64,000 nt of DNA from a virus. The position numbers and the translations under genes are program-made. The DNA lies in IMG/VR virus record IMGVR_UViG_3300032282_006516, positions 57,429 to 121,428 of that record, one strand, 5' to 3'. Positions 174 to 21,905 of the stretch are shown here, piece by piece. Below the pieces are notes generated by a model. That model did no database searches, was not told where the DNA came from, and worked only from the letters and a program-made list of their open reading frames with translations. Numbering within the stretch: position 1 is the stretch's first letter; each line of letters begins with the position of its first letter.

Positions 174-2015
174 TTAGCTCGTTGCCGCCGGAAGAAGTTT
201 TCCAGCCGAAGGCGAGGGAAGTTCACGTACTTGAATTTGAGGCTCTGGAATAAGGGTTTCAGCCGAATGCGCAGGAAGTTTCGGCGCTTGAGCTTTCGGC
301 ATGCCCTTAAACAGAGGTTCTCCTGAAACGCCACGACGAACCATGTTCACGCCAGACTGCGCGGTATTACCAACCGCCTTTCGGAATGTCTGTCCAGCGT
401 ACATGCGACCCCCGATTCCGCCCGCGGCACCACCAAGCGCGGCTCCCGCAAGTCCGCCCTTCAGCGCACCAGAAAAACCATGCCCGGACTCTGCGCTTGC
501 CGCTCCTCCAGCCGCACCGACGGCCGCACCACCGAGCGCGCCAGCCGTACCGGGGTTCTTCATCGCCCACGCACCGAAACGCTGAAGTCCCTTGGTGACA
601 TCCACTGAGCCAAGTGCCTTCTTCTCCATCTGCGCACGCAGGGCCGCATGCTCTGCCATCGCCTGCTTAATCAAGCGCGCCGACCCCGTAACAATCTTTC
701 CGAGCGAAGGGTCGCCTTGGTTGATAAGCTGCCCCCGCCAGTTCCTTTGAGCCGGCTGGTACAGCATGGCTTCGTTCGCGGCTGGGTCAAAAACCGGTGT
801 TCGATGCGACATGCCATACTCCAGGTCAATCGGCGCTGCCGACCCCGGTGTATGCCCAAATGACGCCGGCGTTGCTGGCTCTTGCAGCGGTGCGCTAAAT
901 CGAGATTTTGTGGGTGACGGCGCATGCTCTGGGTCCACCAACATGTTGTGGACATCCACCAGATTCTTCTGGTTCTCCTTTGCCTCACGCACCTGCTCTG
1001 GCGTCAGCACGGCAGGACGAGGCGCAGGAGCGGCAGGAGCGGGGTGAGGTGCAGCGACGCCACCGGCAGGCGGCGCGGGTGCGCGCCCGACAGGCGCCGC
1101 CGGCACACCCGTTACCGATTGATGCTGAAGGTTTTTCAGGTCGGAAAGGCTCTCATCAATCACGCCCTTTGCCGCCGCACTGTTTGTGAGGTGCTGACTC
1201 ATGCCGCCCGCGAGTCCACCGACGGCGGCGCCACCCAGACCCCCCTTCACTGCCCCCGAGAGACGATTCCCCGGACCTCCGGCCACCGCGCCGCCGACGG
1301 CACCCGCCGCACCGCCCACCAACGCGCCTGCGGCGGCACGATTCTTCATCGCCCATCCGCCAAAGTTTTTCAACGCATCCGCTGCGGGCACCCCGCCCAA
1401 GGCAGTTTTCGCCATCATCGTGCCGGCCTGCGTCCCGTACGACGTCAGCGCCTGAACGTGGGCCGCTTTCTGCATGTCCTGCCGCGCCAGCATCCGACCG
1501 AAGTTGTCCGCAAACGCCACCTTTGCGACACCGCCGCCAAGCCCCTGCGCAGCATCTTGCGCTCCTTCAGCGGGCACCGGACCCGGAGCCCCCGCACCCT
1601 GGGCGGGCATGTCGGGCGCCTCGGGCATCGCAGGGGGCGCACCTTGCATTTTTGCAAGTTCAAGCTCCAACATGCGCTTCTTGAGCTGGATCTTGCTGCG
1701 AAGCTCCCAAGGGTCCCCCGCCGCACGCTGCTCTTCGCGGCGCTGCTGGTCGAGGATGTCGGCCTGAAGCTCTTCCTGCTCCAGTCCGAGAGCCTGCTCA
1801 AAAAGCGGCGTACCCCGGAACCGCTCCAGGAACACCGAACCGCTCTCTTCCGGGTAGGCGAGCTTGAGGTGCCCGTACAAAGTCTCCACCGGAGTACCGC
1901 TCGCCAGAGCGCGCAGCTCATTTTCCGGAAGGCCGCTAAGAAGCGACGTCAGCTCGGCCTGTCCTTGCTTGGCCAACTCCGCGGTGTATGCGACTTTGAG
2001 GAATTCGTTGAGCAT
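174..2015 (-). CDS. Putative internal virion protein with two glycine-zipper repeat domains and K-x-A motifs (613 aa)
   Basis: Overlaps the upstream gene's stop; duplicated (F)G(G/A)WAMKN...GALxGxA domain; KVAY, KLAY, KVAF, KTAL, KQAM motifs. Confidence 0.75.
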   Translation of the reverse strand: MLNEFLKVAYTAELAKQGQAELTSLLSGLPENELRALASGTPVETLYGHLKLAYPEESGSVFLERFRGTPLFEQALGLEQEELQADILDQQRREEQRAAGDPWELRSKIQLKKRMLELELAKMQGAPPAMPEAPDMPAQGAGAPGPVPAEGAQDAAQGLGGGVAKVAFADNFGRMLARQDMQKAAHVQALTSYGTQAGTMMAKTALGGVPAADALKNFGGWAMKNRAAAGALVGGAAGAVGGAVAGGPGNRLSGAVKGGLGGAAVGGLAGGMSQHLTNSAAAKGVIDESLSDLKNLQHQSVTGVPAAPVGRAPAPPAGGVAAPHPAPAAPAPRPAVLTPEQVREAKENQKNLVDVHNMLVDPEHAPSPTKSRFSAPLQEPATPASFGHTPGSAAPIDLEYGMSHRTPVFDPAANEAMLYQPAQRNWRGQLINQGDPSLGKIVTGSARLIKQAMAEHAALRAQMEKKALGSVDVTKGLQRFGAWAMKNPGTAGALGGAAVGAAGGAASAESGHGFSGALKGGLAGAALGGAAGGIGGRMYAGQTFRKAVGNTAQSGVNMVRRGVSGEPLFKGMPKAQAPKLPAHSAETLIPEPQIQVRELPSPSAGKLLPAATS

Positions 2016-4201
2016 CAGCCTGCCCTCTTGCTGAGAATGTCCTTGAGATTGCGAGCAATCGAACCGACGTGCTCACCTGACCGTTTCAGCGACCCCACAA
2101 CTTGCGGGCCATTTGACGCACCAAGCAGCGCACCGCCGAGAGCCCCCATCCCTGCCGATACGCCGGGGTGTTCGTTCGCGAACTCACCCATCGTCAGTCG
2201 TGCACGCGACTGCGCGAGGTTAAGCGCATCGCGATAACCTCGGTCCGGCTTCGCCTCCAGCTCTTGGACCTTTTGCCGAAGCGGGTCGTAATCCGCACGA
2301 GATTCTAGGTAGCCGAGACCCCCACCCATGGCTGCACCAGCAGCGGCATGCGGAAGAACTGAAACGGCTTTTCCAGCCTGCATGGTGAGGTAGTTTTTGA
2401 GGGACGCCTGCTTACCGGCGACGCCAAAAGGGAGGAAGTGCGACAAGACCTCCTTGCCCGGCGTCTGCCCCTGCTGGTCCTTCTGGTTCATCGACGTCGC
2501 CGGATTCGCGTTCGCGAACATCGGTTCCGTGCCCGCAGCCGGTGCGTTGTTCTGGTCCTCTCCCATCGGGGCAACCGAGTTCGGTGCCGCACCGGGGCTC
2601 GCCGCCTGACCCGCAGGTCCCGAAGTCGGCTCGGGCGCACTGCTCGGCGCCGCAGCCTGGCTCGCCGCTTGGGCCGCGGCATCCATGCCCGTCAACGACG
2701 GAGGCTCTTGCGATGCCGCCTGAAGCAGCGTCCCACGAAGCTGCTGGTACGCCATGCGCATCGCAGCAGCGGCTTGCTGCTGCTGGAGAATCTGGTCTTG
2801 CGCTGCCATGGCTTTTTGCGTCGACGAGGCGACCTGCGCTTGGTACGCCGCCGTCTGCTGCTCGTTCAGCGCCTGTTGTTGCTGCGCCTGCTGAACTTGC
2901 TGCTGAAGCTGCTGTGCCTCTTGCTGCTGTTGCTCCTGAGCCTGCTGCGCCTGCTGGAGCTTCTGGCGGAGGAAGTCGATGTGATTGTTCTCCGCACCCT
3001 GCTGCGCCTGTTGCTGGAGGGCGAGGTACTGCTGAACCTCCGGGGCAAGCATGGGCTCAATCGGCGCGCCCGGCATGGGCTGCGGAGCCGCTTCCTGCTC
3101 CGGCTGCATGCCCATCTCGTCCAGAGCAAACTTGAACGCCGATGCCGCCTTTTGATATGCCGCCGCCGTCTTCCATTCCTCCGGCAGCGCGCCCGTTTGG
3201 TTAAAGTGGATAACACTCGGCGTAGACTGCTGCGCGTCTATATGGGCCGCAATGCCACGCGCAGCGCGTTCACGCGCCAAAACACGGGCATGCTCCTGCG
3301 CGTATCGCTTACCCCCACGCACAGCACCACCCAGAGTGCCCAAAGTGGCGCCAGCTAGAGCACCACCAAAGGCTCCGTGACTGAGTGGCTTTTTCGCAAG
3401 ATGTGCTAACAAGCTACCGCCGGCAGCGCCGCCCAAAGCACCAAGCAGTTGTCCGCCCCGCACGTTTTGACGGTACGTAGGGACTGCTTCTCTGTTTGCC
3501 GCTTGATGCGCCGCTACTTCGTTTGGGCTAACTACGTGCATCAGGAAGGCATTCCTGCGTGCGATGTCGCGGTCTAGTGGTTGACCGTTGTGCATCGTCG
3601 CGTAGGAATCCACCAACTGACGTAGCTGGTCATTCGCAGTCTTCTCGTGCCGATGACGGTCCATCGACCCGCCCACTTCACGGCCCGCCTTGCCACCCAT
3701 GTGCTGACCGAGCCAAGCACCACCCAACGTCGCCATCGGGTTGCCCTTACCGTAGTGGTGCATGAGCGCTGCGCCGGCAGCGGCCCCAGCTCCACGCCCA
3801 GCCAGCTCACCGTGCCGCTCGCTGCGATGCGCGTGCTCTTTCGCGAACTCCGCACTGAGCGAAGCACGAGCGCGTTCGTGCCCCGTCTCTTCCGGCGACT
3901 TGGACGCCGCCGTTTTTGCAGGGGGCACAGCGTGCTGCCCTTGAGCAGCGGGAGGAAGGGACACAGGGGGCGCGGCCTGCATGTTCTGACCCTGCGCCGT
4001 AGGCGGCAGTGTCATGGGCGCGCCCATTCCCATCGCCTCGGCCTGCTTCAGCAGGGCGTACTGCTCCTGCACGGAGAGTGACTCAAACGCCGCGTCTAGG
4101 TCCGCAACGGTGGCTTGCTTCTCCACACCGCGAACCTGGATGAAGAACGCAGCGGCCTCGGCTTGAGGGATGCCCTTGAGCAAAAAGTCGTCGAAGTTCA
4201 T
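2015..4201 (-). CDS. Putative internal virion protein; glycine zippers, Gln-rich coiled coil, K-x-A motifs (728 aa)
   Basis: Long ORF in the head operon; GAAAGAA and GALGGAAGG segments; poly-Q heptad stretch; EKQAT, KTAAS, KQASL. Confidence 0.75.
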   Translation of the reverse strand: MNFDDFLLKGIPQAEAAAFFIQVRGVEKQATVADLDAAFESLSVQEQYALLKQAEAMGMGAPMTLPPTAQGQNMQAAPPVSLPPAAQGQHAVPPAKTAASKSPEETGHERARASLSAEFAKEHAHRSERHGELAGRGAGAAAGAALMHHYGKGNPMATLGGAWLGQHMGGKAGREVGGSMDRHRHEKTANDQLRQLVDSYATMHNGQPLDRDIARRNAFLMHVVSPNEVAAHQAANREAVPTYRQNVRGGQLLGALGGAAGGSLLAHLAKKPLSHGAFGGALAGATLGTLGGAVRGGKRYAQEHARVLARERAARGIAAHIDAQQSTPSVIHFNQTGALPEEWKTAAAYQKAASAFKFALDEMGMQPEQEAAPQPMPGAPIEPMLAPEVQQYLALQQQAQQGAENNHIDFLRQKLQQAQQAQEQQQQEAQQLQQQVQQAQQQQALNEQQTAAYQAQVASSTQKAMAAQDQILQQQQAAAAMRMAYQQLRGTLLQAASQEPPSLTGMDAAAQAASQAAAPSSAPEPTSGPAGQAASPGAAPNSVAPMGEDQNNAPAAGTEPMFANANPATSMNQKDQQGQTPGKEVLSHFLPFGVAGKQASLKNYLTMQAGKAVSVLPHAAAGAAMGGGLGYLESRADYDPLRQKVQELEAKPDRGYRDALNLAQSRARLTMGEFANEHPGVSAGMGALGGALLGASNGPQVVGSLKRSGEHVGSIARNLKDILSKRAG

Positions 4202-4205
4202 CCCA

Positions 4206-4727: not shown

Positions 4728-4778
4728 TAGCCCTCTCCAGGTTCTTCTGAGACGAAAGAACGAGGCAACTCGTGCCTT

Positions 4779-5276: not shown

Positions 5277-5279
5277 GAA

Positions 5280-6142: not shown

Positions 6143-6161
6143 TACAAATCCTCCAAACGCC

Positions 6162-6197: not shown

Positions 6198-6224
6198 TAG
6201 CCTCGCAGATGCGAGAGCGTGTGG

Positions 6225-7349
6225 CTAGTACTGCTGGACGTTCGGGAACTTCAGGCCGGCGTCGACCTTGTTGTTCGGAGCGCCGAGCGCGTCCTCGGAG
6301 ACCGGGACGAAGTTCGAGATGAGCGCGTCCGCGTTCGTCGTCGGGTTCGCGTCCGCCGAGTACAGCTCCAGCTTACGCACCGCGGCGATGTTGATGATCG
6401 CCATCGCGATGTCTTCCCAAGCCTGGAAGGTGATGACGTTCGCGATCTTGTCGATGTAGAACTTGGTGTTGTTCAGGACGTAGAACTTCCCGAAGAACTC
6501 CGGCTTGGTGAAGCAGTACACGTTGCCCGGACGGAGGATGTCCGACTTCACGGTACGGATGTACGAACGCCCGAAGAGCGTGTTGTACTTGTAGCCGTCG
6601 ACGGCCGTCTCCGACTGGAGCCGGTCACCGAAGTCCTCAAGCGTCCACTGAAGGATGTCGTCCCAGTCGACCTCCGTCATGAGGAGCCGCTCCGAACGAA
6701 GGCGGTTGCCGTCGAGGAGCTTGAAGAGGTTGATGACGTCCGGGCGCTGAATCGGGCGCACCGTCGCGTCGTTCGAGGTCGCCGTACGAGCCAGCTCACC
6801 CTTGCGGATGGAGAACTCGACCACGCCCGCGCCCTGGATCTGCGAAGCGTTGAGCGGCGTAGCCACGCCACCGTTCGCCTGAAGCTGAAGCGCCTGGCAG
6901 GCGGCCTCGATGTTGATCGTGAACTCGCGGTCCTCGACCTCCTGGATGTCCTTCACCGAGTTCTCCTCGATGATCTTGGTGATGGGCATCTCGTAGGCGA
7001 GAAGCTCCTGCTCCGTCTTCTGGAAGATTTCCGACGAGACGGTGTAGAAGCCGACCTCGGCCTTGGCGCCGCGAATCATGCGCGCCGTGGGCGAACCACG
7101 AAACGTCATGGTGAGCGCGCGGCTCTGCGGCTCGACGTCAACGATCTTGACCAGCGTGTCGTGGTTGACCGAGCGCTGGCAGTCGCTGCGCGTCACCTGC
7201 TCCGGGGGGAGCACCTTACGCGCGTACGACACCTCACGGAGACGGTCGCGGATGTAGGACCCGCCGTACTCCGCCATCTTCTCCTTGCCCTCACCCGAGC
7301 CGAGCTTCTGCGTGAAAAGCTCGTTCAGAACGCGTGCCGGAACACTCAT
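6225..7349 (-). CDS. Major capsid protein (HK97-fold candidate, 374 aa; start MSVPARV at 7349)
   Basis: Strong RBS GGAAGGAGAGG; very high C/G-ending codon bias; follows protease, scaffold-like and decoration genes; size typical of an MCP. Confidence 0.75.
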   Translation of the reverse strand: MSVPARVLNELFTQKLGSGEGKEKMAEYGGSYIRDRLREVSYARKVLPPEQVTRSDCQRSVNHDTLVKIVDVEPQSRALTMTFRGSPTARMIRGAKAEVGFYTVSSEIFQKTEQELLAYEMPITKIIEENSVKDIQEVEDREFTINIEAACQALQLQANGGVATPLNASQIQGAGVVEFSIRKGELARTATSNDATVRPIQRPDVINLFKLLDGNRLRSERLLMTEVDWDDILQWTLEDFGDRLQSETAVDGYKYNTLFGRSYIRTVKSDILRPGNVYCFTKPEFFGKFYVLNNTKFYIDKIANVITFQAWEDIAMAIINIAAVRKLELYSADANPTTNADALISNFVPVSEDALGAPNNKVDAGLKFPNVQQY

Positions 7350-7378
7350 GATGCCTCTCCTTCCTTTCCTGTTCCGGC

Positions 7379-7930
7379 CTACTTGCGACCGCCGGAGACG
7401 AAGCGCAGCTGGCCGCCGTTGCTCGCCGGAAGGCGAGTCACGTAGCCGACAATGGGGTCGACGTCGCCGCCACCAAGGGCGCCCGCACCAACGAGGCCCG
7501 AGAAGTTGCGACCGCCGAACGAAATGGTAGCCACCTTGAGCGGCTGACCGACGTAGCTGATGGCAGCGCCACCGTGAACAGCCGCCGTCGCGTCGAAGAT
7601 GCGCGTGTCGAACTCGTACTCGCCGCGCCAGAGCACCGGCATCTTCGTCTGCGAAAGCGCCTGCACGTCGTAACGACCACGCTCCGCGAAGAGCGGAACG
7701 AGGATACCCGTCGGGTTCGACGCGCCCGCCGGCCGGTACGAACCCACCGACGTGATGTCGGTGGCGCGCACGAGCTGGTAGCTGTTGTTGAGGGTCATCC
7801 ACTCGCCGTCGACGAGCGCGACCGCGTTGAGCGGCTGCGCGAGCGTCGGGTCGCCGAGAGCGAAGTCACGGCGCTGCACCGGCAGGATGTCCGAAACGGG
7901 CGTGAAGTTGATCTTCTGAAGAGTCGACAT
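7379..7930 (-). CDS. Putative capsid decoration/cement protein (183 aa)
   Basis: Immediately upstream of the MCP; beta-rich; strong codon bias; position typical of decoration proteins. Confidence 0.5.
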   Translation of the reverse strand: MSTLQKINFTPVSDILPVQRRDFALGDPTLAQPLNAVALVDGEWMTLNNSYQLVRATDITSVGSYRPAGASNPTGILVPLFAERGRYDVQALSQTKMPVLWRGEYEFDTRIFDATAAVHGGAAISYVGQPLKVATISFGGRNFSGLVGAGALGGGDVDPIVGYVTRLPASNGGQLRFVSGGRK

Positions 7931-7967
7931 GTCCTAGTTCCTCCAGTTCCTTCGTTGGTCGGAGCGG

Positions 7968-8336
7968 TCAGCCCACGCCTCCGACGATGTACCGCTCCAA
8001 GTCCGACGAGGCGAAGGAAGTAGACCTCGGCTCGTCATTCGTGAGCTGTGCCAGCTTCGTGCTCATGTCGGGACCGACGAGGTCCACGGCATGCTCAACG
8101 GCCTCAAGTTTGCCCGCCGCAGCCGCCTTCTCCAGACGGTCTGCGAGCGTCTCCACCTGAGTGTCCAGTTCGAGCCCTTTCCGGTGCATCTCCGAAGCGA
8201 GCTTCTCCACCCGCTCACGGCGCTCCTTCGATGCGAGCTTCTCCGCAAGCTCATTGATGTGAACCTGCTGCGCTCGAAGAGCGGCAGACGCGTCGGTGAG
8301 CACCTCCGCAATCTGCGCGTTGCTGAGCTTGTTCAT
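7968..8336 (-). CDS. Putative scaffold-like coiled-coil protein (122 aa; start MNKLSNA)
   Basis: RBS GAGGAG; charged helical sequence with EKLAS twice. Confidence 0.55.
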   Translation of the reverse strand: MNKLSNAQIAEVLTDASAALRAQQVHINELAEKLASKERRERVEKLASEMHRKGLELDTQVETLADRLEKAAAAGKLEAVEHAVDLVGPDMSTKLAQLTNDEPRSTSFASSDLERYIVGGVG

Positions 8337-8346
8337 CGTACGCTCC

Positions 8347-9876: not shown

Positions 9877-9891
9877 GCTCCTATCGACTCC

Positions 9892-10827: not shown

Positions 10828-10856
10828 GTGAATGTCCTCCAGCAATCCTTGGTTCT

Positions 10857-12587: not shown

Positions 12588-12595
12588 GATGCCTC

Positions 12596-13108: not shown

Positions 13109-14327
13109 ACTCACCGCCCATCTGCGGATTCGCCGCCATGTAGTCGGCTTCGAGGTTCTGCTGTGTGCCCGGCACGTTGCGAAGAAAAAGATTGCCAGCG
13201 CCGCGAATGGCACGCGCCGGAAGACTTGGGCTGTGTTTCAGGTAACGGTAGCCCTCAAGACCCGCCAATCCGAGTGCGATGTTGGGCGCGTGCGTGATGA
13301 GGCCCTTGGCGACGCTACCCGCGCCTTCACCCAAGGCCTTAGCGACTAAAGGGCCGGTGGCTTCTCCCGCGCGCGAGCTGAGACGGGTAACCCCCCGGTA
13401 AGCACGACCGGCAAGACTCGGCGATGCCGCCGTCTTGAGGTACTCCTGAAGATGACCAGCCTGCTCCATCAGCTCCGCACGAACCTCGCGGGCCTCGGCC
13501 AGTTTGGACAGCGTGTCGCAGAAGTCGCCAAACTCCACAACCAACGGATGTGCCGGATTGACGACCTTGGCCGACGCCGTCTTGTCCACCGATGAAGTCA
13601 TGTGCTCGACGTTGTAAAACACCCCGTCTTGAAGAAGGCGCGGCGTAACAAGCGAGAAAGCAACCTTCACATGGTCTTCGCTCGGAGCGACCGACTCCCA
13701 CGCCTGCATGACCTCGCCGAGCGTGACGCCCGACAGAGCAGCCTGCTTCACCTGGTGGTACACGCGGTCCGACAGGTCGGAGTAGAGAATCTCCAGCCCG
13801 CTGATTTCTGACCGAAGGTGCTCTGCTGCCCCGGCCAGCTTGTCCTTGAGGTCCATGACCTCGCTGTGCGGGTTCTCGAAAGGGAGGTCGGCTTCAGCGG
13901 TCTTGTCGAGCAGCTCGAAAAGCTCTTGCTCGGCCTTGCTCGAAGAAACCTTGGCCTCGGGCGGAGGGGCGTCGTAGTCCCCCGTACCGCGGTCGTACAC
14001 CGACCCGCCACCGCCGTCGTTTAGGTCCTGCAGAATGGCGCTGGGGTCCGCCGGGCCACCCGGAAAGTCGACCACGTGATGCGGCGCGCCTTCCTTGCGG
14101 AACTCGTCGAGGTAGGCCGAGGTGTTGGCAAACTCCACCACCCGCCGAACTTGCTCCGGCGAGAGCTGCGCCTGCTTGACCGTCGACGTCACCGCATCCG
14201 TCAGCGTCTTGAAGTCGCCTTCACTCCAACGCGCCGCAGCGCGCTTGCCGAGCACCTCAAGGTACTCCCCAGAGTGTGCGTGCGAATTCATTTGCTGCAG
14301 CATGTTCTGCAGAGGAAGGTCCGACAT
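13098..14327 (-). CDS. Putative internal head protein with K-x-A motifs (409 aa)
   Basis: First gene of the head operon; RBS AAGGAG; KQAQ, KTAE, KQAA, KVAF, KTAS, KTAA. Confidence 0.7.
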   Translation of the reverse strand: MSDLPLQNMLQQMNSHAHSGEYLEVLGKRAAARWSEGDFKTLTDAVTSTVKQAQLSPEQVRRVVEFANTSAYLDEFRKEGAPHHVVDFPGGPADPSAILQDLNDGGGGSVYDRGTGDYDAPPPEAKVSSSKAEQELFELLDKTAEADLPFENPHSEVMDLKDKLAGAAEHLRSEISGLEILYSDLSDRVYHQVKQAALSGVTLGEVMQAWESVAPSEDHVKVAFSLVTPRLLQDGVFYNVEHMTSSVDKTASAKVVNPAHPLVVEFGDFCDTLSKLAEAREVRAELMEQAGHLQEYLKTAASPSLAGRAYRGVTRLSSRAGEATGPLVAKALGEGAGSVAKGLITHAPNIALGLAGLEGYRYLKHSPSLPARAIRGAGNLFLRNVPGTQQNLEADYMAANPQMGGEYGY

Positions 14328-14369
14328 CAGGCGCTCCTTTGCCTAAAAAAGTAACAGGAAGGCAAAACC

Positions 14370-15059
14370 ATGGGAAGAGAACTACCCCCCGGCTACGTCA
14401 CGAGGAGCGAAGCGGCCCACGAACTCAGCATCAGTGTCAGCACCCTTGCTCGCCTGGTGCAACGCGGCCTTCTGTCGCCGAAGCGGCTGGCAGGAGTGCG
14501 TGTCCCGGTGTTCAAGCTGGAAGAGGTGCATGCCGTAAAGAATCGAGGAAACCGAAGTGACTGGAACGAAGTGCAGAGTGTAGCACTCGCGGCCCTGTCG
14601 ACCGCAAAACGCGCCGAAGCACGTCTCAACGAAGTCTACGAGCACCGTGGGCTAGACGTCGAGCCTCTTGCGCGTACTCCCGATGCGATTCGCGCCCTCT
14701 ACACCGAGGTGCAGCTCCCTCTGGACTCGAAAGACCTCTGGGCGCCTGGTTGGCTCCGTCGTTGGGGTGGGGTGCTTTTCGCCCTCGATGAGCACTACCT
14801 AGAACTGGTTGAGCACCTCACCAACAACTCCGAACCGTGGAAGCCGTACCTGGACTTTGCCGCGAGTGTCATGCGCCTCGTACACGCCGAACAAGATGAA
14901 GCGTTGTCGCGTGCCGCCGCACGTTTTCGCGCCGGGCAGCGGCACCTCTACCATGTTGGTTACATGTACTGCCGACGCACGCAGGGAGTGCGCGTAGCCG
15001 GTGTTGTATTTGATGGCCGAGCCGGCGCTGTGGATGAGCTACTGGCCATTTTGGATTAG
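14370..15059 (+). CDS. Helix-turn-helix DNA-binding protein (excisionase/MerR-like N-terminus, 229 aa)
   Basis: YVTRSEAAHELSISVSTLARLVQRGLL...FKLEEV is an HTH_17-type pattern; divergent from the head operon. Confidence 0.7.
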   Translation: MGRELPPGYVTRSEAAHELSISVSTLARLVQRGLLSPKRLAGVRVPVFKLEEVHAVKNRGNRSDWNEVQSVALAALSTAKRAEARLNEVYEHRGLDVEPLARTPDAIRALYTEVQLPLDSKDLWAPGWLRRWGGVLFALDEHYLELVEHLTNNSEPWKPYLDFAASVMRLVHAEQDEALSRAAARFRAGQRHLYHVGYMYCRRTQGVRVAGVVFDGRAGAVDELLAILD

Positions 15060-15060
15060 G

Positions 15061-15087
15061 CAATTTTTGTCACTATTCGGAGATAAG
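15061..15087 (+). promoter_or_regulatory. Candidate phage promoter CAA-N19-ATAAG (copy 1)
   Basis: CAA 15061-63, ATAAG 15083-87; AT-rich; directly upstream of a + strand gene. Confidence 0.55.
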
Positions 15088-15091
15088 AATA

Positions 15092-15685
15092 GTGATGCAC
15101 AACATCCAAAACCCCTCGACCTCCACCTCCACCCTCACGGCCGTGCAGTACGACGCGGCGCTCGCGCTCGCGCTCGCGCACGGCCACAACTGGGCCCGAT
15201 GGGCCCATCCCGGCGCGGCCGCGTACGACGAGGCGATGGCGCCCGCGCTGGCGCGCGTCCAGTCTGAGCGCGCCGCGGGCGCGGTAACGCTCGCCGCCAT
15301 TAACGCGTGCGCCTGGAAGGCGCAAGACCTCGGCCTGGCGCTGCCCGGCATCGACGGGCCCTCGTTCGAGGGCCCGGCCGTCGCGCACACGACGGGAACC
15401 GGGCGCCTATACTGGCGCGTAGAGCCCCCGGGCACCGTCCTGATCCACGTGTGGAGGCCGGGCGGTGAGACCCCCTGCCTCGCCGCCATGGTGGTCGAGG
15501 GGCGCATGTTCCGATTCACACTCGGAACGGGCGCCGAAGGGCGCCACGTCGTGGCGCTCGACGTCGCGCTCCGCGCGCTCGGGGTGGCCGAAAAGGTCCG
15601 GCGAGCGCTGTACATGCTTGTTCGGGATGGGGGCGCGGTGCTGGCGGAGGCGGACGCCTACGCGGAGAATGGGGGTGCTCAATGA
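15092..15685 (+). CDS. Hypothetical early protein (197 aa)
   Basis: ORF follows the promoter-like element; ATGA overlap with the next gene. Confidence 0.6.
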   Translation: MMHNIQNPSTSTSTLTAVQYDAALALALAHGHNWARWAHPGAAAYDEAMAPALARVQSERAAGAVTLAAINACAWKAQDLGLALPGIDGPSFEGPAVAHTTGTGRLYWRVEPPGTVLIHVWRPGGETPCLAAMVVEGRMFRFTLGTGAEGRHVVALDVALRALGVAEKVRRALYMLVRDGGAVLAEADAYAENGGAQ

Positions 15686-15894
15686 GCCCCCCCACCAGCA
15701 AGAAAAACACGGCGTTCATTTTGGTGCGGGGGGACGAGCGCGCCCTCGTCTCCCGGGATGAGAAGGGATGGACCGTCCTGGCCTGGGACGAGGACGGTCA
15801 GGGCCGACGCACCACGGTGCTCGGCCCGAACGACGAGGACGCGCGGGCTGCAATTTGGAAGCTGCTGGAGCAAGGCTTCCGAAACGGCCTGTGA
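15682..15894 (+). CDS. Hypothetical protein (70 aa)
   Basis: ATGA coupling; globular composition. Confidence 0.6.
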   Translation: MSPPTSKKNTAFILVRGDERALVSRDEKGWTVLAWDEDGQGRRTTVLGPNDEDARAAIWKLLEQGFRNGL

Positions 15895-15901
15895 CCGACG
15901 C

Positions 15902-15930
15902 GAGAAGGGGGAGTCATTCTCTCCCTTCTC
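15902..15930 (+). terminator. Stem-loop after 15682..15894
   Basis: GAGAAGGGGGAG-TCATT-CTCTCCCTTCTC inverted repeat. Confidence 0.45.
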
Positions 15931-15936
15931 GCTAGG

Positions 15937-15963
15937 CAACTTTTTTCATTATTCGTGGATAAG
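15937..15963 (+). promoter_or_regulatory. Candidate phage promoter CAA-N19-ATAAG (copy 2)
   Basis: 15933-15966 matches 15057-15090 at 29 of 34 positions, without gaps. Confidence 0.55.
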
Positions 15964-15979
15964 AATGATGGAGGTAATC

Positions 15980-16144
15980 ATGTCTCAAAAAGATGAGCGG
16001 CCTGTGGTCGTAGAAGTAACCAGCGATGCGGAAGAGAAAGAACAACTGAAGGGATGGGTCTGTTCTTGCGGTTGCGGCTGCAAGCGCAGGCACTGGTCTC
16101 CGACGAGCGGTTACTGCGGGCACTGCCGCGCAGGAGACTGCTGA
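15980..16144 (+). CDS. Small Cys-rich protein (54 aa)
   Basis: GGAGG RBS; MSQKDERP...CSCGCGC...CGHC...C. Confidence 0.55.
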   Translation: MSQKDERPVVVEVTSDAEEKEQLKGWVCSCGCGCKRRHWSPTSGYCGHCRAGDC

Positions 16145-16164
16145 AAGTCCTCCCGAAAGGGGGC

Positions 16165-16194
16165 ACGCGGCCAACGCCGCGTTTCTTAGCCTCT
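16165..16194 (+). terminator. Intrinsic terminator with TTAGCCTCT tail
   Basis: ACGCGGC-CAAC-GCCGCGT then TTC-TTAGCCTCT; at the convergence of + early genes and the terminase gene. Confidence 0.6.
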
Positions 16195-16196
16195 AA

Positions 16197-18041
16197 TTAA
16201 CCCTGGTCTACCGGCCCTCGATAGCCCGTACGCAGCGGGCCCTGCCCCGGCATTTCCCGAATCGGGGAGATGATGTCCGGACGCGGAGTAAGAATCATCG
16301 AGACTAGGAAACAGTACAGGATGGAATGAAACGCATCGTCAGGACGGTCCGGACGATGGGTGTACTGAATCATCCGCAACGACTCATTGTACTCACTGAA
16401 GATGTTGAGAATGTCGTTTGCGTACGGGTCTTCAAACTCTTCCCATCGAGGAAAGTCGAGCTGCTTACGCTTCACGGCGTTGAAGAGGTCGCTCATCACC
16501 TCCGTGCGAACCATCTGCCAACGGCGGAACTGTGGGTTCCACTGGAGCTTCTTTTTGCCCCTCGGCATGTACTGATACTTGTGAATGCGCTTGGGGCCGA
16601 ACTTCCGCGTCAGGAAGTCGTTGCGGTCAAAACCGCCGCCGTAGTCGGCCCCGACCAAACGCACATTGAAGTACTGGAGCATCTCGCTGATTTTTGCGAG
16701 CTGCGGCTCTGGGTCGACATCCTCACCGACAAAGCGGTGCACGTAGAAGATGCGGAACTTCTGGTTGATGTACGTGCCCAGGGAGAGAACCGTGTACGTG
16801 TTTTCTCCTGTGCCCCAGTCGATTCCCGCGAAGACAGGCTGACCCGCACCGAGCGAATGGTATGCCTCCAACGCCTTCGGGTGCATCGTCACATCGGGGT
16901 TACAACACTCGCGAACTTGTTGCCGCGTTAGTGGACGAAGACCGGAGTCGTAAGAAACTCCCAGCACCTCGTTGTAGAACTTGGCGCGGTCGTAACGCCC
17001 GTAGTCGAGCATGATTTCATCCCACGACCGCCAGGGCACCATGAGCTGCGGAATCCGGTAGCTCTCAAAAATGCCGCCCTCCTGCATCATCGCCCACTGC
17101 GCATCAGGGTGCATGGGGTTGATGAGGTTGTGACAACGCTCGCAAGAGAGACCGCGCTTTTGAATGTTCTTCTCGCCAAGGACATTCCAGAAACGACCTG
17201 CACCTGCAGAGGAACCGCAGCGGTCACAAGGCACCACCCACTCCCCCATGGTGCTCATCGGACGGCCTTTTGACGTACCGCTGCGGTAATACTCGATGAC
17301 GTTATCGAGACCCTTGGGAGTTCCGGCGTAGATGAACCGGCGCCAGCGTTCCGGCGCGTGGCTCGACGACTGCTCGATAACCGGAATGTTGTCCGCGAGA
17401 ATGTCCTGCAACTCGTCGAGCGCGATGCACCAAGACGGGATACCGCGGGTACGGTCCGCGTTCAGGAAGGCGTAGCGAAGTGTCACCTTCGAGCGGTTGA
17501 CGAACTGCTTTTCGAGAATGTTCTGCTGCAGCAGTGTCGTTGTGTAGGACCGCAAGACCTCACTGGTCTCCAACGGCTCCTTGATGCGGTCCGCCGAGAA
17601 CGTCTTCGTCTGTGTCGCAGACGGCGAGACGTAGAGTGTACGAAAGTCCGGCACCATGCACGAGTACGTGATGATGCGGTTGCCGAGCAGCGTGGACTTC
17701 TCGACCTGGCGACCACAGAAGAGCAGAAGGCGCTTGGCTTCTGTGTCGTAGATGCGCCGCATGTGACGACGCCCTTCAAACGAGAAAGGTTCACGACCCT
17801 GTCCATCCGCTCTCGGCATCCGGAAGGCGAACTCCGTGAACTGCGACGGCAGGATGGCAGGAATCTGAAAAGCAGCTTTGGGCGGCGACCCTGAGAACGA
17901 GAAGTCGCCGAAGGGCTCCGGCTCCGCACACCAAGGATGCCCATACTCGTCGTCGAACAAAGACTCGTCCAAGTCTTCGACGCTCGCATCGGCGTCAAAG
18001 ATTTGCGGGGGACGGGCGTTTGGTAGATACACGGTAGACAT
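16197..18041 (-). CDS. terL: Terminase large subunit (lambda GpA-like)
   Basis: GRQVEKST Walker A, LDELQD Walker B, AGTPK coupling motif, CxxC...CxxC, GIDWG and PDDAFHS nuclease motifs; start is ATG 18041 or TTG 18062. Confidence 0.9.
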   Translation of the reverse strand: MSTVYLPNARPPQIFDADASVEDLDESLFDDEYGHPWCAEPEPFGDFSFSGSPPKAAFQIPAILPSQFTEFAFRMPRADGQGREPFSFEGRRHMRRIYDTEAKRLLLFCGRQVEKSTLLGNRIITYSCMVPDFRTLYVSPSATQTKTFSADRIKEPLETSEVLRSYTTTLLQQNILEKQFVNRSKVTLRYAFLNADRTRGIPSWCIALDELQDILADNIPVIEQSSSHAPERWRRFIYAGTPKGLDNVIEYYRSGTSKGRPMSTMGEWVVPCDRCGSSAGAGRFWNVLGEKNIQKRGLSCERCHNLINPMHPDAQWAMMQEGGIFESYRIPQLMVPWRSWDEIMLDYGRYDRAKFYNEVLGVSYDSGLRPLTRQQVRECCNPDVTMHPKALEAYHSLGAGQPVFAGIDWGTGENTYTVLSLGTYINQKFRIFYVHRFVGEDVDPEPQLAKISEMLQYFNVRLVGADYGGGFDRNDFLTRKFGPKRIHKYQYMPRGKKKLQWNPQFRRWQMVRTEVMSDLFNAVKRKQLDFPRWEEFEDPYANDILNIFSEYNESLRMIQYTHRPDRPDDAFHSILYCFLVSMILTPRPDIISPIREMPGQGPLRTGYRGPVDQG

Positions 18042-18046
18042 CCGAG

Positions 18047-18367
18047 ATGAAACGTACTGCAAGACCCGATGTATTTGTGGGAGAACTTGTCTCTAGTGTG
18101 CAGCGCGCTGGTCCGGTTCTCACGGGCCAAACGACACTACAACCAGAGGCAGAGGGTGACGGATACTGCGGAACAATGCAGCTCGTGCCGAACGCTTTTC
18201 ACGCCAACGACTTAGGGCGGCGGGTCAAAGACGCTTTCGTCACGTTTGTTCGCGCGTACTGCCGTACCCAGGGATGGAGGCTTCGGGAGTTTCGCGTGAA
18301 GAAGAACTACGTCGAGTTCGCCATCGCCGCTTCAAGACCCCGGTCGAGTTCCAGCAAGAACCGCTGA
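18047..18367 (+). CDS. Hypothetical protein (106 aa), isolated on the + strand
   Basis: Fills a gap of about 245 bp between minus-strand genes; plausible globular sequence; overlaps a neighbour. Confidence 0.35.
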   Translation: MKRTARPDVFVGELVSSVQRAGPVLTGQTTLQPEAEGDGYCGTMQLVPNAFHANDLGRRVKDAFVTFVRAYCRTQGWRLREFRVKKNYVEFAIAASRPRSSSSKNR

Positions 18368-19645: not shown

Positions 19646-19646
19646 C

Positions 19647-21905
19647 TCATGCCTTCTGGAACGCCAACACCTTCAGTCCTTCAAGCACATCCTCTGTCGT
19701 GCGAACAGCTTTTTCAAGAGCTGAGACGGGCACGTCGCGAAGACCAAGGCGCGCCGCGAGCAAAAGCTCGCACATCTTGAGCTGCGCTTCGTCGATGGCC
19801 GGCATGTACGAGATGAACATGCCGACGTTTTCGGGGTTGAGGAAACCCAACGAAAGCACGGTGTCGACAGCCATCGGGTCCGGAATGACCGCCGCTTCCT
19901 TGACGAGGTCGACCTTGAAAAGCGGCATGTCACGAAGAACACCGGCCGCCGCCGTCTTCGCTTCGTCGAGACGCGCGCTGGCCGTCTTGATGTGACGACC
20001 AACACGAACCAAGACAGGCGCGCTGAACGCGCTCGCATGGCCGAGCTTCTGCTGCGCGTAGCCCATGTCGACGCCGAGCGCGCCGAGCATGAACATCGTG
20101 TCGTCGAGCGACAGGAAGTGCTTCTCCGCGCTCGCGAGCTTCTCCACAGGAAACCCGTCGATGGAAAAGCTGTCCACGCCGCCCGAGCGAATCTGCACCG
20201 TCGCCAAAGAAAGCGCTGCCTGCGCCTCCTTGTCGAAGCCGCCCGGGTCGCTCACCAGCGACGTCGGCTCCGCGTCCCCCAACGGAAGCCACGAGAACGA
20301 ATCCGGGATGAGCATGTGGTCGCCTTCCGGCGACGGAAGGATGCGCTGGATGTTGGGCTGCACGATGACCTGCACCTCGCGCCCGTCGAACGTATCCGCA
20401 TGCAGGATGACACCCCCCTGTTCCGGGGACGCCATCGTCGCCTTGATGTTCATCGGGATGGTGGCTTCGGCCCGACCATTCGGCAGCAGGTGGTAGAACA
20501 CACCCATCCCGCGAGGACGACTCTCAAAAAGACCGGCACCGTCGCCCACGCTAACGCCGACAATGTCACCCTGGACCGCCATCTGGCTGCCGTTGGTGAA
20601 CAACGACATCGGGAGCGCCTGTCCGTCCACGTCGATGAGATTCGTGAACACGTACCCCACGAGCTGCTTTCCGTGGTCGTCCTTCACCTTGTAGAGACCG
20701 AACTGACTAATCAGCTCCGGCATGTCCTTCTCAGGACTTTGTGCCTCGGGCACACCGTCGTGGCCGACGACCCCATCACCAAGAGTCATGGTCGCCGCGC
20801 CCGTAAGGTCGGCCGCAAGAACCACCTTCTCCCCAAGAAGCCGAAGTGCCTCCCCACGGTCCAGGGCCTTTGTCTCCGGCAGCCAGCAGTTGTGCGCCGC
20901 CGTCTTCAGCGAGTAACCCGAGGCTTCCTTACGAAGCTGGGCCACCGTGGGCTTGAGGTTTTGCAGAGTGGCACTCGCGAGTTTGTGCGGACTCGCGGGC
21001 TCGTAAGCCGAAAGAATCTTCAGCGCATCGCCCGTGGCAAACCCGTTGACGACGTATTGGGCTTGGAGCCCAAGGTCGCTGGCGACCTTCTGAAAGAAGG
21101 CGCTGTAATCCGACTCATTGATGGTCGGAAGAATGGCTGAGAGAACAGAGGACAGCTTCGTTGCCTTGGAAAAGGAGCTCATCTTCCCCATGCTGGAGGC
21201 CGCATCGAGAAGACCCTTCACCTTCGAGCCGATTCCGCTGGAAGGGCCACGACCGCCGAGGGTGTTCTTGCGGGAATTCGCCTCGTAGTTGTCGCCATCC
21301 GTCATCGCTCCGAAGGGGGTTGGGGACTTCCCCGGAGCGAACGCCTTCTTCTCGGCAGCTTTATACGCCAGGATTGCTGAGCCCTGCTTGCCCATGCCGA
21401 CGTTCATCGTCGCGCCGCCACCGCCGAAGCCGTAGTTCTGGCGGTACGGGGGGTAGAGCTGCCCAATCATCGACATGTCGCCGGGGCCACGACCCGTGAT
21501 GTCGAAAGCCTGCGGACGAAACACGGCTTGACGAAGCCGCGCCTCGGTCAGCGGAAGAACGTGCGAGTCGTCCGTAACCAGAAGGTCGAGCGGCTGGAGC
21601 TTCCGGTCTTTGATGACAATCGGAATACGCGCCGACTTAACGCCCGCCGCGCGCATCGCGTCTTCCGGCGCCCCGTGCTGAATCTCCGTCTTGTTCTGAA
21701 TCTCGATGTGCCCGAAGCCGAAGCCGCGCTCCGCATCCACGCGGTCCATCACCACATGGGGCTCGAAGTCCGCGATGTAAGGAACCTGCTTGAAAAGCTC
21801 CTGCATCAGCTCGTTCGGCCACTGATTCGCGTCCTCGGGCATGGTCACCTCGGCGGCGACCTTCTCGAACTGCACCTGGGGCTCGAAGAACAGCGATTCG
21901 GACAT
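19647..21905 (-). CDS. Putative virion protein with many K-x-A motifs (752 aa)
   Basis: RBS GAGGAG; EKVAA, QKVAS, HKLAS, LKTAA, EKLAS, IKTAS, AKTAA, VKEAA. Confidence 0.75.
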   Translation of the reverse strand: MSESLFFEPQVQFEKVAAEVTMPEDANQWPNELMQELFKQVPYIADFEPHVVMDRVDAERGFGFGHIEIQNKTEIQHGAPEDAMRAAGVKSARIPIVIKDRKLQPLDLLVTDDSHVLPLTEARLRQAVFRPQAFDITGRGPGDMSMIGQLYPPYRQNYGFGGGGATMNVGMGKQGSAILAYKAAEKKAFAPGKSPTPFGAMTDGDNYEANSRKNTLGGRGPSSGIGSKVKGLLDAASSMGKMSSFSKATKLSSVLSAILPTINESDYSAFFQKVASDLGLQAQYVVNGFATGDALKILSAYEPASPHKLASATLQNLKPTVAQLRKEASGYSLKTAAHNCWLPETKALDRGEALRLLGEKVVLAADLTGAATMTLGDGVVGHDGVPEAQSPEKDMPELISQFGLYKVKDDHGKQLVGYVFTNLIDVDGQALPMSLFTNGSQMAVQGDIVGVSVGDGAGLFESRPRGMGVFYHLLPNGRAEATIPMNIKATMASPEQGGVILHADTFDGREVQVIVQPNIQRILPSPEGDHMLIPDSFSWLPLGDAEPTSLVSDPGGFDKEAQAALSLATVQIRSGGVDSFSIDGFPVEKLASAEKHFLSLDDTMFMLGALGVDMGYAQQKLGHASAFSAPVLVRVGRHIKTASARLDEAKTAAAGVLRDMPLFKVDLVKEAAVIPDPMAVDTVLSLGFLNPENVGMFISYMPAIDEAQLKMCELLLAARLGLRDVPVSALEKAVRTTEDVLEGLKVLAFQKA

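Follow-up and report, generated by a model that had tools for sequence, protein, structure and literature searches.

The window, a stretch of 64,000 nucleotides, belongs to the genome of an uncultured phage of about 190 kb with a GC content of 61%. Its head region comprises 18 minus-strand ORFs between positions 174 and 21905. The features of interest are given below; x or a dot in a motif stands for any residue, and counts are given as observed versus expected.

174-2015, minus strand: 613-aa Gly-zipper-rich protein, leader M-L-N-E-F-L-K7-V-A
2015-4201, minus strand: 728-aa protein with Gly-rich hydrophobic segments and a Gln-rich coil, leader site E-K28-Q-A
6225-7349, minus strand: major capsid protein, true start 7349 (phrog_2522 major head protein, E 1.1e-7)
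7269-7280, minus strand: K24-M-A-E of the capsid protein, just ahead of its conserved N-arm
7968-8372, minus strand: small coiled-coil-like protein, 134 aa, 4 of 8 lysines in K-x-A, EKLAS twice
8347-9876, minus strand: low-complexity head-module protein, 509 aa, 15 K-x-A with a median spacing of 13 residues
9892-10845, minus strand: acidic, helical scaffold-like protein, 317 aa, 8 K-x-A, directly downstream of the protease gene
10857-12587, minus strand: predicted prohead (capsid-maturation) serine protease precursor, 576 aa, with N-terminal leader (aa 1-31), catalytic domain (aa ~32-285), variable linker and helical C-terminal domain (aa ~357-555)
10989-11000, minus strand: conserved K530-I-A-S in the C-terminal extension of the protease
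11610-11621, minus strand: E-K323-V-A-S, candidate site of self-release, located in the linker of variable length that follows the catalytic domain
11733-12494, minus strand: catalytic domain, aa 32-285, candidate dyad His118 and Ser174
12066-12068, minus strand: candidate catalytic Ser174, within VSMG
12234-12236, minus strand: candidate catalytic His118
12489-12500, minus strand: F-E-K30-T-A-A, candidate cleavage site at the leader/catalytic-domain junction
12596-13114, minus strand: small Gly-rich protein, N-terminal leader ending in E-K17-Q-A-A
13098-14327, minus strand: scaffold/core-like protein, 409 aa (K.A 9 versus 2.2)
14235-14246, minus strand: leader site K28 of the 13098-14327 protein
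16197-18062, minus strand: terminase large subunit (TerL), negative control with a single K-x-A (1 versus 1.2)
19647-21905, minus strand: 752-aa head-module protein
21852-21863, minus strand: leader site F-E-K15-V-A-A of the 752-aa protein
34727-36772, minus strand: portal protein, negative control (K.A 3 versus 2.3)
38684-40174, minus strand: 496-aa protein near the portal gene (K.A 15 versus 4.4, z 5.3)

Ranking of 1,600 gapped dipeptides over all 18 minus-strand ORFs of 174-21905 placed K-x-A first. In this a priori test the motif was found 86 times versus 42.4 expected (z 7.4), and in the ranking for the other 112 ORFs of the genome it was not among the top patterns. Per-protein shuffles revealed enrichment in 7968-8372, 8347-9876, 9892-10845, 10857-12587, 13098-14327, 19647-21905 and 38684-40174 and, more weakly, in an eighth protein, 2015-4201 (K.A 9 versus 5.1; K.A[SA] 4 versus 1.3, z 2.5). 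Together these eight proteins contain 45 K.A[SA] versus 6.9 expected, or 7.8 with 15-residue window shuffles, a number equalled by none of 300 shuffles. The control patterns KA, K..A, A.K, R.A, R.A[SA] and the reversed [SA]A.K were all unenriched in the same eight proteins. Per-protein shuffles gave no enrichment for 174-2015 (K.A 7 versus 5.4), the capsid protein, TerL, the portal protein, the RNA polymerase and the replication genes. Between 29 and 50% of the lysines lie inside K-x-A in the enriched proteins. In TerL, the portal, the capsid protein and the RNA polymerase 4-12% do so, a share close to the Ala frequency. The motif is not avoided elsewhere, as the 15 K.A of the RNA polymerase equal the chance expectation. 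The codons of the motif follow background usage, and the signal therefore lies at the protein level. In its fuller form the motif reads hydrophobic-Glu-Lys-x-Ala, followed by Ser or Ala and then often by Ala. A K.A within the first 35 residues was found in 34 proteins, versus 21.9 +/- 4.3 expected.

An earlier sequence-only reading of this DNA had listed EKQAT, KTAAS, EKLAS (twice), KIASASVKTAAA, TKTASS, EKQAS, EKVAA, DKTAS and NKTAS as examples of the motif, and all of them were recovered in the genes named. We confirm its observation as such, but not all of its about ten proteins show enrichment. From the block 36797-40174, which it had included as a whole, 38684-40174 is enriched and 36797-38681 has no site.

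The carriers differ in how the sites are arranged. The strongest enrichment was found for the 752-aa protein (K.A[SA] 9 versus 0.8, z 9.9), which had no match among phage records, PDB or Atlas. A portal assignment for this protein was rejected, and tblastn matches assigned that function to 34727-36772 (Arash 'portal protein', 1e-78; Bacillus phage G portal gp14, 1e-11). TerL was matched by phrog_675 (6e-51) and Pfam GpA_ATPase. In 13098-14327 half of the 18 lysines belong to K-x-A, and from K142 to K298 the sites are about 21-31 residues apart. The protein 38684-40174, with a weak DUF6582 match, has 15 of its 34 lysines in the motif at a median spacing of 26 residues. K.A[SA] was counted 6 times versus 0.9 expected in 9892-10845 and 9 times versus 1.5 in 8347-9876. 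The leader of 174-2015 resembles F-x-D-E-L-x-K-I-A tags found upstream of the window.

The gene 10857-12587 sits amid scaffold-like and capsid genes. Its product had no sequence match in Pfam, PHROG or PDB, and a Pfam scan of 50 family members gave zero matches even at E<=1. An AF2 model of aa 1-315 (pLDDT 82, pTM 0.75) found T4 gp21 as top PDB match (5jbl; VIA Z 9.0, rmsd 2.6 A over 130 aa; Foldseek prob 0.99), followed by the proteases of VZV (1vzv, Z 6.7), HCMV, KSHV, HSV and PRV. Across 50 diverse homologues neither His118 nor Ser174 varies, and the cluster C184, C187, C238 and H240 in the catalytic domain is nearly invariant. Model and conservation thus support a HK97/T4-gp21/assemblin fold with His118 and Ser174 as candidate catalytic residues, in agreement with the clan and the VSMG serine proposed from the sequence. 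Clustering of the homologues at 50% identity gives over 2,700 groups, and inteins in many homologues break the profile near positions 176-187 and 231.

Several sites within the protease itself are conserved. K30 is invariant in 50 sequences (site conservation K 0.96, x 0.52, A 1.00, [SA] 0.91) and lies where the AF2 model passes from pLDDT <50 at aa 15-31 to high values from about aa 35. For K323, within a region of low pLDDT (aa 246-357), the values are K 0.87, x 0.17, A 0.96 and [SA] 0.91 with flanks at 0.36 identity, and for K530 they are K 1.00, x 0.13 and A 1.00 with flanks at 0.37. The motif lysines are more conserved than the other lysines of the protease (p 0.008); the K480 site is not conserved. 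In the homologue P0114 an insert begins at KTAS, and a second site, KKAS, is located near its end. K121 beside the catalytic His and K276/K283 in the last catalytic-domain helix are conserved K-x-A in probably folded segments.

Conservation extends to the other carriers. Across 102, 120 and 59 metagenomic homologues the enrichment was 4.8- to 8.9-fold. The 120 homologues of 19647-21905 contain on average 6.1 sites versus 0.68 expected. In this protein K15, K308, K334, K589 and K669 are conserved and K182, K186 and K650 are not; a K-x-[AGS]-S closes a hypervariable insert, and K334 and K669 lie within well-conserved, probably folded segments. The difference between motif and other lysines was not significant for this protein (p 0.19). 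The proteins around the protease gene are enriched as well in Salmonella phage Arash (53% GC) and Vibrio phage D69 (44% GC), including the counterparts of 9892-10845 downstream of the protease (Arash gp223, 6 versus 0.7; D69 10337-11146, 10 versus 1.0), and homologues of 7968-8372 in L004 and L005 are likewise enriched. K126/S129, K194/A196/A197, K221/A223 and K275/A277 of 13098-14327 are unchanged in homologues as distant as Arash gp220 (25% identity), and motif residues make up 9 of the 38 invariant columns between these two proteins. L002 and L005 have a leader akin to that of 12596-13114, with acidic/hydrophobic residues followed by K-x-A-G, and Arash gp221 has a looser version, L-L-K-A-A-G. 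K-x-A occurs at residues ~22-29 in 4 of 4 aligned capsid proteins, those of Arash and D69 included, and K24-M-A-E could mark a propeptide of about 26 residues. In the alignments K and A are kept while x and the flanks vary. These alignments support K-x-A as a conserved short linear motif restricted to products of genes near those of protease and capsid, among relatives with identities as low as 25-30%. Virion proteins of Arash were reported without peptide-level data or cleavage (PMC10585845).

We consider it likely that K-x-A-[SA] is the recognition motif of the phage's own prohead protease 10857-12587, with K-x-A at P3-P2-P1. The enzyme would require Lys at P3 and Ala at P1, accept any residue at P2 and break the bond ahead of Ser or Ala; the position of this bond is deduced by analogy. 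Within the assembling prohead it would clip N-terminal leaders of 7-34 residues off head-module proteins, perhaps shorten the capsid protein by about 26 residues, release its own catalytic domain through cuts at F-E-K30-T-A|A and E-K323-V-A|S, and trim back its C-terminal extension. The scaffold/core-like proteins 13098-14327, 9892-10845, 8347-9876, 7968-8372 and 38684-40174, and likewise the 752-aa protein, would be chopped to pieces of about 13-30 residues, which could leave the shell as with T4 gp21 acting on gp22. In favor of this reading we count that sites are found where a protease would act, namely at the junction of disordered leader and domain in the protease, in its length-variable linker and at the end of the hypervariable insert of 19647-21905. 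The proposal that sites fall at module boundaries holds for several leader ends and variable linkers, but many others lie in conserved, probably helical segments; K-x-A in folded segments need not be accessible, so that not all copies can be cut. The unconserved sites, the non-significant comparison of lysines in the 752-aa protein and the lack of depletion of the motif in other proteins also weigh against this reading. The sequence-only reading had further regarded the long genes as polyproteins releasing capsid-cargo modules. The protease fold, the conserved motif and a P3-x-P1 layout as in T4, SPN3US (PMC10052503) and herpesviruses agree with its overall interpretation, but the cargo modules are its weaker part: with leaders of 7-34 residues and sites at intervals of ~13-30 residues along acidic or helical proteins adjacent to the protease, the pattern better fits leader removal and destruction of the scaffold/core, as for T4 gp22.

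An artefact of chance or base composition in a GC-rich genome, or of mis-called shadow ORFs, is already refuted. The genome does have many long antisense ORFs at 61% GC, and a naive gene caller chose plus-strand shadow frames over 8347-10845, but the minus-strand frames are backed by a codon-usage model and homologues, z values against shuffles range from 7 to 15, and the same enrichment was found at 66%, 55%, 53% and 44% GC. It also appears very improbable that the motif reflects structure alone, for instance a sequence preference of helices or coiled coils, or shared ancestry without a common enzyme or partner. The signal survives local-composition shuffles, the helix-type spacings K..A, K...A and A..K are at or near expectation, and the motif, with x free and K and A fixed, is present in disordered linkers of the protease and in leaders of unrelated proteins, although several carriers are helical, Ala/Lys-rich and adjoining, some could be paralogues, and the ~26-residue spacing in 13098-14327 and 38684-40174 could be a repeat.

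K-x-A, especially as F-x-D-E-L-x-K-I-A, might instead be a docking or capsid-targeting peptide that is uncut or cut in leaders only, which we regard as unlikely. It would bind scaffold, capsid interior or protease, with the internal copies as multivalent sites holding the core. Longer amphipathic versions close to the N-terminus of proteins that are otherwise unrelated and encoded upstream of the window, several internal copies within conserved helical segments and the many enzymes contained in Arash virions (PMC10585845) would suit such a role. The conserved core of two residues plus a small P1' is, however, too little for a binding interface and typical of protease subsites, and the free x, the small residues flanking Ala and the presence of sites in disordered linkers and at the borders of inserts favor cutting. 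Both functions are compatible, as exemplified by the T4 capsid-targeting sequence, which is a targeting signal and is also cut. Among the motif positions Lys is conserved best, is not replaced by Arg and is often preceded by Glu, so that the lysines could be marked for another event, either cleavage behind Lys by a trypsin-like enzyme of host or phage, or a modification or cross-link in head maturation. This seems improbable to us: candidates for a modifying enzyme or second protease were not found in the head module, and the strict Ala at +2 with Ser/Ala at +3 fits the P3-x-P1|P1' layout of the encoded enzyme family.

With recognition by the phage's own protease as the preferred reading, the closest known system is that of T4, whose gp21 (MEROPS S77) is the best structural match of the catalytic domain. 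T4 has (L/I)-x-E sites, its scaffold gp22 is broken down into small peptides, and its internal proteins carry capsid-targeting leaders. It shares with this phage a P3-x-P1 motif that recurs within scaffold/core proteins, where short leaders end, and within the protease, whose gene lies amid scaffold and capsid genes. Here P1 would be Ala and not Glu and P3 Lys instead of Leu/Ile. The protease differs from gp21 by its lack of detectable sequence similarity (Pfam, PHROG, PDB), its length of 576 aa, the Cys/His cluster and a C-terminal extension of ~290 residues consisting of linker and helical domain. The HK97 gp4-type proteases (Pfam Peptidase_S78/U35) belong to the same clan, act in head maturation and carry the Ser in a small-residue motif before a strand; the present family differs in having no Pfam match (50 members, E<=1), and HK97 itself has no separate multi-site scaffold proteins. 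Herpesvirus assemblin (MEROPS S21), the second-best fold family, cuts its R and M sites at (V/L/I)-x-A|S with Ala at P1 and Ser at P1'. The likeness includes this P1/P1' pair and a probable self-release from a scaffold-like C-terminal extension, but here P3 is Lys and not aliphatic, dozens of sites replace two, and the candidate catalytic residues here are a His/Ser dyad. The proteases phiKZ gp175 and SPN3US gp245 also process many head and ejection proteins. SPN3US gp245 cleaves behind A-x-E (P3-P2-P1), preferably with Ser at P1', makes multiple cuts in propeptides and cleaves off its own C-terminal propeptide (PMC10052503), and a virion-borne RNA polymerase is common to phiKZ-like giant phages and Arash (PMC10585845). 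Their motif (A-x-E, or S/A/G-x-E) has Glu at P1, no sequence relationship was found, and enrichment is here concentrated in about eight proteins beside the protease. K-x-A most likely represents a new specificity within this well-known kind of head-maturation protease.

The window covers the final 64 kb of a 121-kb IMG/VR contig with a completeness of about 65% (CheckV). The GC content of this phage is about 61% and its relatives have genomes of 170-200 kb. Searched as nucleotides against 50,697 phage records, the head module gave no match, and at the protein level only Salmonella phage Arash (181 kb) and the Vibrio phages D69, D181 and D148 (187 kb) were matched, with about 30% identity. Gene calling relied on a model of codon usage learned from long genes of high confidence. 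When 30 proteins of the window were scanned with PHROG and Pfam, nothing emerged beyond TerL, a weak capsid-protein match and faint DUF matches. TerL, the major capsid protein and the portal served as anchors.

Anchor genes and two further genes in the window
6225-7349, minus strand: major capsid protein (phrog_2522, 1e-7)
7379-7930, minus strand: separate 183-aa gene, overlapping the extension region of the capsid ORF 6225-7802
16197-18062, minus strand: TerL (phrog_675, 6e-51)
23813-30247, minus strand: RNA polymerase, a single ORF of 2,144 aa
34727-36772, minus strand: portal (tblastn: Arash 'portal protein', 1e-78; Bacillus phage G portal gp14, 1e-11)

The true start of the capsid protein is MSVPARV at position 7349, matching the relatives. 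The longest ORF over this gene (6225-7802, minus strand) contains an extra Arg-rich N-terminal extension of 151 residues, which is probably untranslated, as both the relatives and the codon model place the start at 7349. The portal gene lies about 13 kb from TerL with the RNA polymerase gene in between. Directly downstream of the RNA polymerase gene, 22571-23809 (minus strand) shows a faint match to Pfam Phage_base_V (OB-fold spike, E 0.014). Between the head module and TerL, at 15073-15685, ORFs overlap on both strands with a very high GC3 of 0.87-0.88. The products of 174-2015 and 2015-4201 (minus strand) each have two Gly/Ala-rich hydrophobic blocks (weak Pfam Gly-zipper_YMGG match), and 2015-4201 comprises additionally a long Gln-rich coil; both could be membrane-active ejection or pilot proteins. 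The 752-aa protein encoded by 19647-21905 (minus strand) was considered as the portal on account of size and position, and this was ruled out: it matches no phage record, and the portals of Arash and phage G are matched by 34727-36772. Comparison of its family with Arash gp218 by hhalign was insignificant (probability 2.6%), a PDB profile search with the family gave nothing meaningful, and the ESM Atlas provided a poor model of the protein with no usable neighbour.

The sequence-only reading had noted that a K-x-A motif, usually followed by Ser, Ala or Phe, recurs in head-associated proteins, and had taken it for the site of a prohead protease. All of its quoted motif examples were found. In eight proteins K-x-A-[SA] occurs 45 times, compared with 6.9 expected from composition and 7.8 after shuffling within 15-residue windows, and none of 300 shuffles reached the observed count. 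For a ranking of 1,600 gapped dipeptides the ORF set was fixed a priori as all 18 minus-strand ORFs of 174-21905; here K-x-A was the most enriched pattern (86 versus 42.4, z 7.4) and E-K the top adjacent pair. In the same ranking of the other 112 ORFs, K-x-A was outside the top patterns. Shuffling protein by protein located the signal in 7968-8372, 8347-9876, 9892-10845, 10857-12587, 13098-14327, 19647-21905 and 38684-40174, with a weak enrichment in 2015-4201. The 752-aa protein is richest in the motif (9 K-x-A-[SA] versus 0.8 expected). These shuffles revealed no enrichment in 174-2015, the capsid protein, TerL, the portal and the RNA polymerase, nor in the replication genes, where the motif had already been noticed to be less evident. 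The RNA polymerase has no K-x-A within its first 35 residues. Depletion of the motif in proteins expected to survive was not found; the RNA polymerase contains a chance number.

Of all lysines in the enriched proteins, 29-50% belong to a K-x-A, at an Ala frequency of 11-19%; the corresponding value for TerL, the portal, the capsid protein and the RNA polymerase is 4-12%, which is about the Ala frequency. The control patterns KA, K-x-x-A, A-x-K, A-x-x-K, R-x-A, R-x-A-[SA] and the reversed [SA]-A-x-K were at or below expectation in the eight proteins. The signal therefore depends on the exact spacing, on the direction and on Lys, and Ala/Lys-rich helices do not explain it. The codons used for K, A and S within the motif correspond to background usage, with no dominant DNA word, which rules out an explanation at the DNA level and points to selection on the protein. 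Among 84 sites the residue after K-x-A is most often S (25) or A (20), next E (8), G (6) and F (6), and is often followed by a further Ala; L/V/A/F/Y are preferred at -2, Glu at -1, and T/L/Q/V/A/S/I at the middle position.

The enrichment extends to metagenomic relatives, Arash and D69. Three sets of 102, 120 and 59 homologues showed 4.8-, 8.9- and 6.2-fold enrichment, with 88-99% of the proteins at more than twice their own expectation. Proteins near the protease gene are enriched in contigs of 55-66% GC, and likewise in Arash (53% GC; gp220 7 versus 0.6, gp223 6 versus 0.7) and in the gene after the protease in D69 (44% GC; 10 versus 1.0). In the alignment of 13098-14327 with Arash gp220 (25% identity), motif residues account for 9 of the 38 invariant columns. 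In 4 of 4 aligned capsid proteins, a K-x-A directly precedes the conserved N-arm, at about residues 22-29.

An alignment of 24 sequences of the protease (576 aa, 10857-12587, minus strand) showed K-x-A as conserved islands amid variable surroundings. The leader site F-E-K30-T-A-A has conservation values of 0.96, 0.52 and 1.0 for K, x and A. The site E-K323-V-A-S in a linker of variable length reaches 0.87, 0.17 and 0.96 with flanks at 0.36, and K530-[LI]-A-S reaches 1.0, 0.13 and 1.0 with flanks at 0.37; L-K333-x-A-F is a further conserved site. Motif lysines of the protease are more conserved than its other lysines (0.89 versus 0.67, p 0.008). An insert in one homologue (P0114) opens with a KTAS site, and towards its end a second one, KKAS, follows. 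The family of the 752-aa protein has conserved the N-terminal F-E-K15-x-[AGS] and the sites at K308, K334, K589 and K669, and K-x-[AGS]-S closes its hypervariable insert. Some sites within hypervariable parts of this family are unconserved, and the conservation difference between motif and other lysines is insignificant (p 0.19). Conserved K-x-A also occurs in probably folded segments, namely in the catalytic domain of the protease at K121 beside His118 and, within its final helix, at K276 and K283, and at K334 and K669 in conserved segments of the 752-aa protein. It is unlikely that all of these are cut.

The assignment of 10857-12587 as a prohead protease is supported by a predicted model. 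Residues 1-315 were modelled with AF2 from 50 diverse homologues (pLDDT 82, pTM 0.75). In the model the leader (1-31) and the part after 284 are disordered, with a compact domain at about 35-280 in between. Among 48,161 PDB representatives the best match was T4 gp21 (5jbl_A; Z 9.0, rmsd 2.6 Å, 130 of 165 residues, 19% identity), followed by the VZV protease (Z 6.7); the HCMV and KSHV proteases were also listed, and the next unrelated fold, MCE domains, had Z values of at most 5.7. Foldseek placed 5jbl at ranks 1-3 (probability 0.98-0.99, E 0.015-0.024) and thereafter six herpesvirus proteases (PRV, HSV-1/2, HCMV, EBV, VZV). A model of the whole protein had low confidence (pLDDT 62) and matched gp21 with no more than Z 3.5. 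The modelled domain thus has the assemblin-type fold of HK97, T4 gp21 and assemblin (MEROPS clan SH). The gene is located within the head module beside scaffold-like and major capsid genes; the minus-strand order is TerL ... 13098-14327, 12596-13114, protease, 9892-10845, 8347-9876, 7968-8372, 7379-7930 and capsid 6225-7349, and it is identical in Arash and D69. Modelled fold, putative catalytic residues and gene position point to a protease of the capsid-maturation type.

At the sequence level the protease had no Pfam, PHROG or PDB match. Pfam searches with 50 family members (E<=1) revealed no protease family (Peptidase_S77, S78, S21 and U35 were looked for), a PDB search with a profile of 24 sequences (E<=10) gave nothing meaningful, and the best 150 matches of a profile search in 1.84 billion proteins all belonged to the same family, with no bridge to a named protease family. 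Because curated sequence models and PDB sequences are unmatched, the protease is by sequence a new family within the fold class and not S77, S78 or S21. One search returned more than 1,397 family members and another at least 2,745 clusters at 50% identity.

Across 50 homologues, the most distant at 39% identity, no more than 15 columns are invariant, among them His118, Ser174 (V-S-M-G) and Lys30. His118 and Ser174 are the putative general base and nucleophile. Relative to the catalytic residues of T4 gp21, which we take to be His85 and Ser140, they are offset by +33 and +34, values compatible with the aligned ranges 47..272 and 21..172, a comparison at the level of ranges. The domain holds a further conserved feature:

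11733-12494, minus strand: catalytic domain with the Cys/His cluster C184, C187, C238 and H240 (CSIC ... CDH), nearly invariant, right after the VSMG serine

This pattern suggests a metal cluster inside the domain, which may be a Zn site; we know of no Zn site of this kind described for gp21, HK97 gp4 or assemblin. Many homologues have 900-1,700 aa with one to three inteins (Hint or homing-endonuclease Pfam matches; e.g. P0006, P0013, P0016 and P0031). Among the matches listed, the inteins break the protease profile at about 176-187 and at 231, next to Ser174. Insertion beside catalytic sites is typical of inteins.

K-x-A is found in the first 35 residues of 34 of 133 ORFs, where 21.9 ± 4.3 would be expected; most ORFs from the capsid gene to 19647-21905 are among them, and leader sites of the form F-E-K-x-A are conserved in the protease and the 752-aa protein. 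The sequences of several head proteins thereby show short putative N-terminal leaders ending in the motif, an arrangement of the T4 type. An extended tag, [AS]-F-x-D-E-L-x-K-I-A-[AE], lies close to the N-terminus in several proteins that are unrelated to one another, one of them resembling SF2 helicases; these are encoded upstream of the window at genome positions 10203-18169 and 31081-32211. In the window, the product of 174-2015 begins with MLNEFLKVA, a weaker version of the tag. The extended tags and MLNEFLKVA may be capsid-targeting leaders.

By analogy with the known multi-site enzymes of this fold, K-x-A followed by S/A is most likely the site of the encoded protease, which would cut before S/A: the P3-x-P1 layout is the same, and it is also consistent with a middle position that varies freely and with small residues on either side of the presumed scissile bond. 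Short N-terminal leaders would be clipped off at K-x-A, and the protease would free itself from its own leader and its C-terminal extension. In the acidic, helical proteins flanking the protease the motifs are spaced by 13-30 residues, and cutting at these intervals would match the expectation for a scaffold or core that leaves the shell, as with T4 gp22. The sequence-only reading had regarded the long genes as polyproteins releasing cargo modules; the protease site in this idea remains the likeliest reading, and the site pattern fits leaders and a self-destructing scaffold or core better than released modules.

The same motif might serve for docking or targeting and remain uncut. This would be compatible with the long extended tags, but a core of only two fixed residues is not enough for binding; we consider it rather unlikely. 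A lysine-directed modification, or cleavage after the Lys, appears very unlikely. That K-x-A is a structural habit of these proteins or a consequence of paralogy is scarcely probable, as the controls with other spacings and the occurrence of sites in disordered linkers speak against it, and the probability of chance or composition is practically negligible.

In addition to the protease site, a wider reading can be put forward tentatively. K-x-A would have two uses within a lineage of ~190-kb phages that is large (its protease forms more than 2,700 clusters at 50% identity) and has hardly been studied. The extended F-x-D-E-L-x-K-I-A would bring a whole group of enzymes, among them a helicase and a sigma-like factor, into the capsid together with a virion RNA polymerase, and the minimal form would direct cuts by a new assemblin-fold, Zn-cluster-bearing protease family. 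The packaged proteome and the mature termini could then be read from sequence, and the tag could possibly be reused for loading foreign cargo. For Arash, 116 virion proteins are reported; besides the protease homologue gp222 they comprise a helicase, a sigma factor and subunits of the RNA polymerase, the last being the most abundant by spectral count (PMC10585845). The paper mentions neither protease nor cleavage; its supplement is an annotation table whose 'coverage' column cannot indicate N-termini, and peptide-level data appear in neither (PMC10585845).

Metagenomes are rich in the protease family, and two cultured phages also have it. Were the proposed code confirmed, mature termini could be predicted for thousands of genomes, and with them which proteins are processed or packaged. 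Head genes now labelled 'hypothetical' could be annotated better, and in phages with an RNA polymerase of their own the connection of cargo loading with maturation could be tested. Phage protease specificity may also bear on host immune systems that detect such proteases (compare a 2026 preprint, PMC12991175).

Systems of this kind are familiar; new are the proposed specificity and the sequence family of the protease. Literature searches on prohead-protease motifs returned only motifs ending in Glu and no K-x-A or Lys-x-Ala. In SPN3US the site is A-x-E with Ser preferred at P1', several cuts occur within propeptides, and the C-terminal propeptide is self-removed (PMC10052503). If true, Lys-x-Ala↓Ser would add a specificity that is new and herpes-like at P1/P1', in a protease family unrecognised by sequence models. 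To our knowledge, prohead-protease specificities are experimentally established only for T4, the phiKZ/SPN3US group, HK97 and staphylococcal 80alpha-type phages, and all multi-site phage examples known to us end in Glu. Herpes assemblin cuts at V/L-x-A↓S. The window motif would share its small P1/P1' residues and depart from its consensus at the presumed P3, which is aliphatic in herpes and Lys in the window, with no substitution by Arg. With T4, where the site is L/I-x-E, the window motif has the P3-x-P1 layout in common, whereas P1 is Glu in T4 and is predicted to be Ala in the window.
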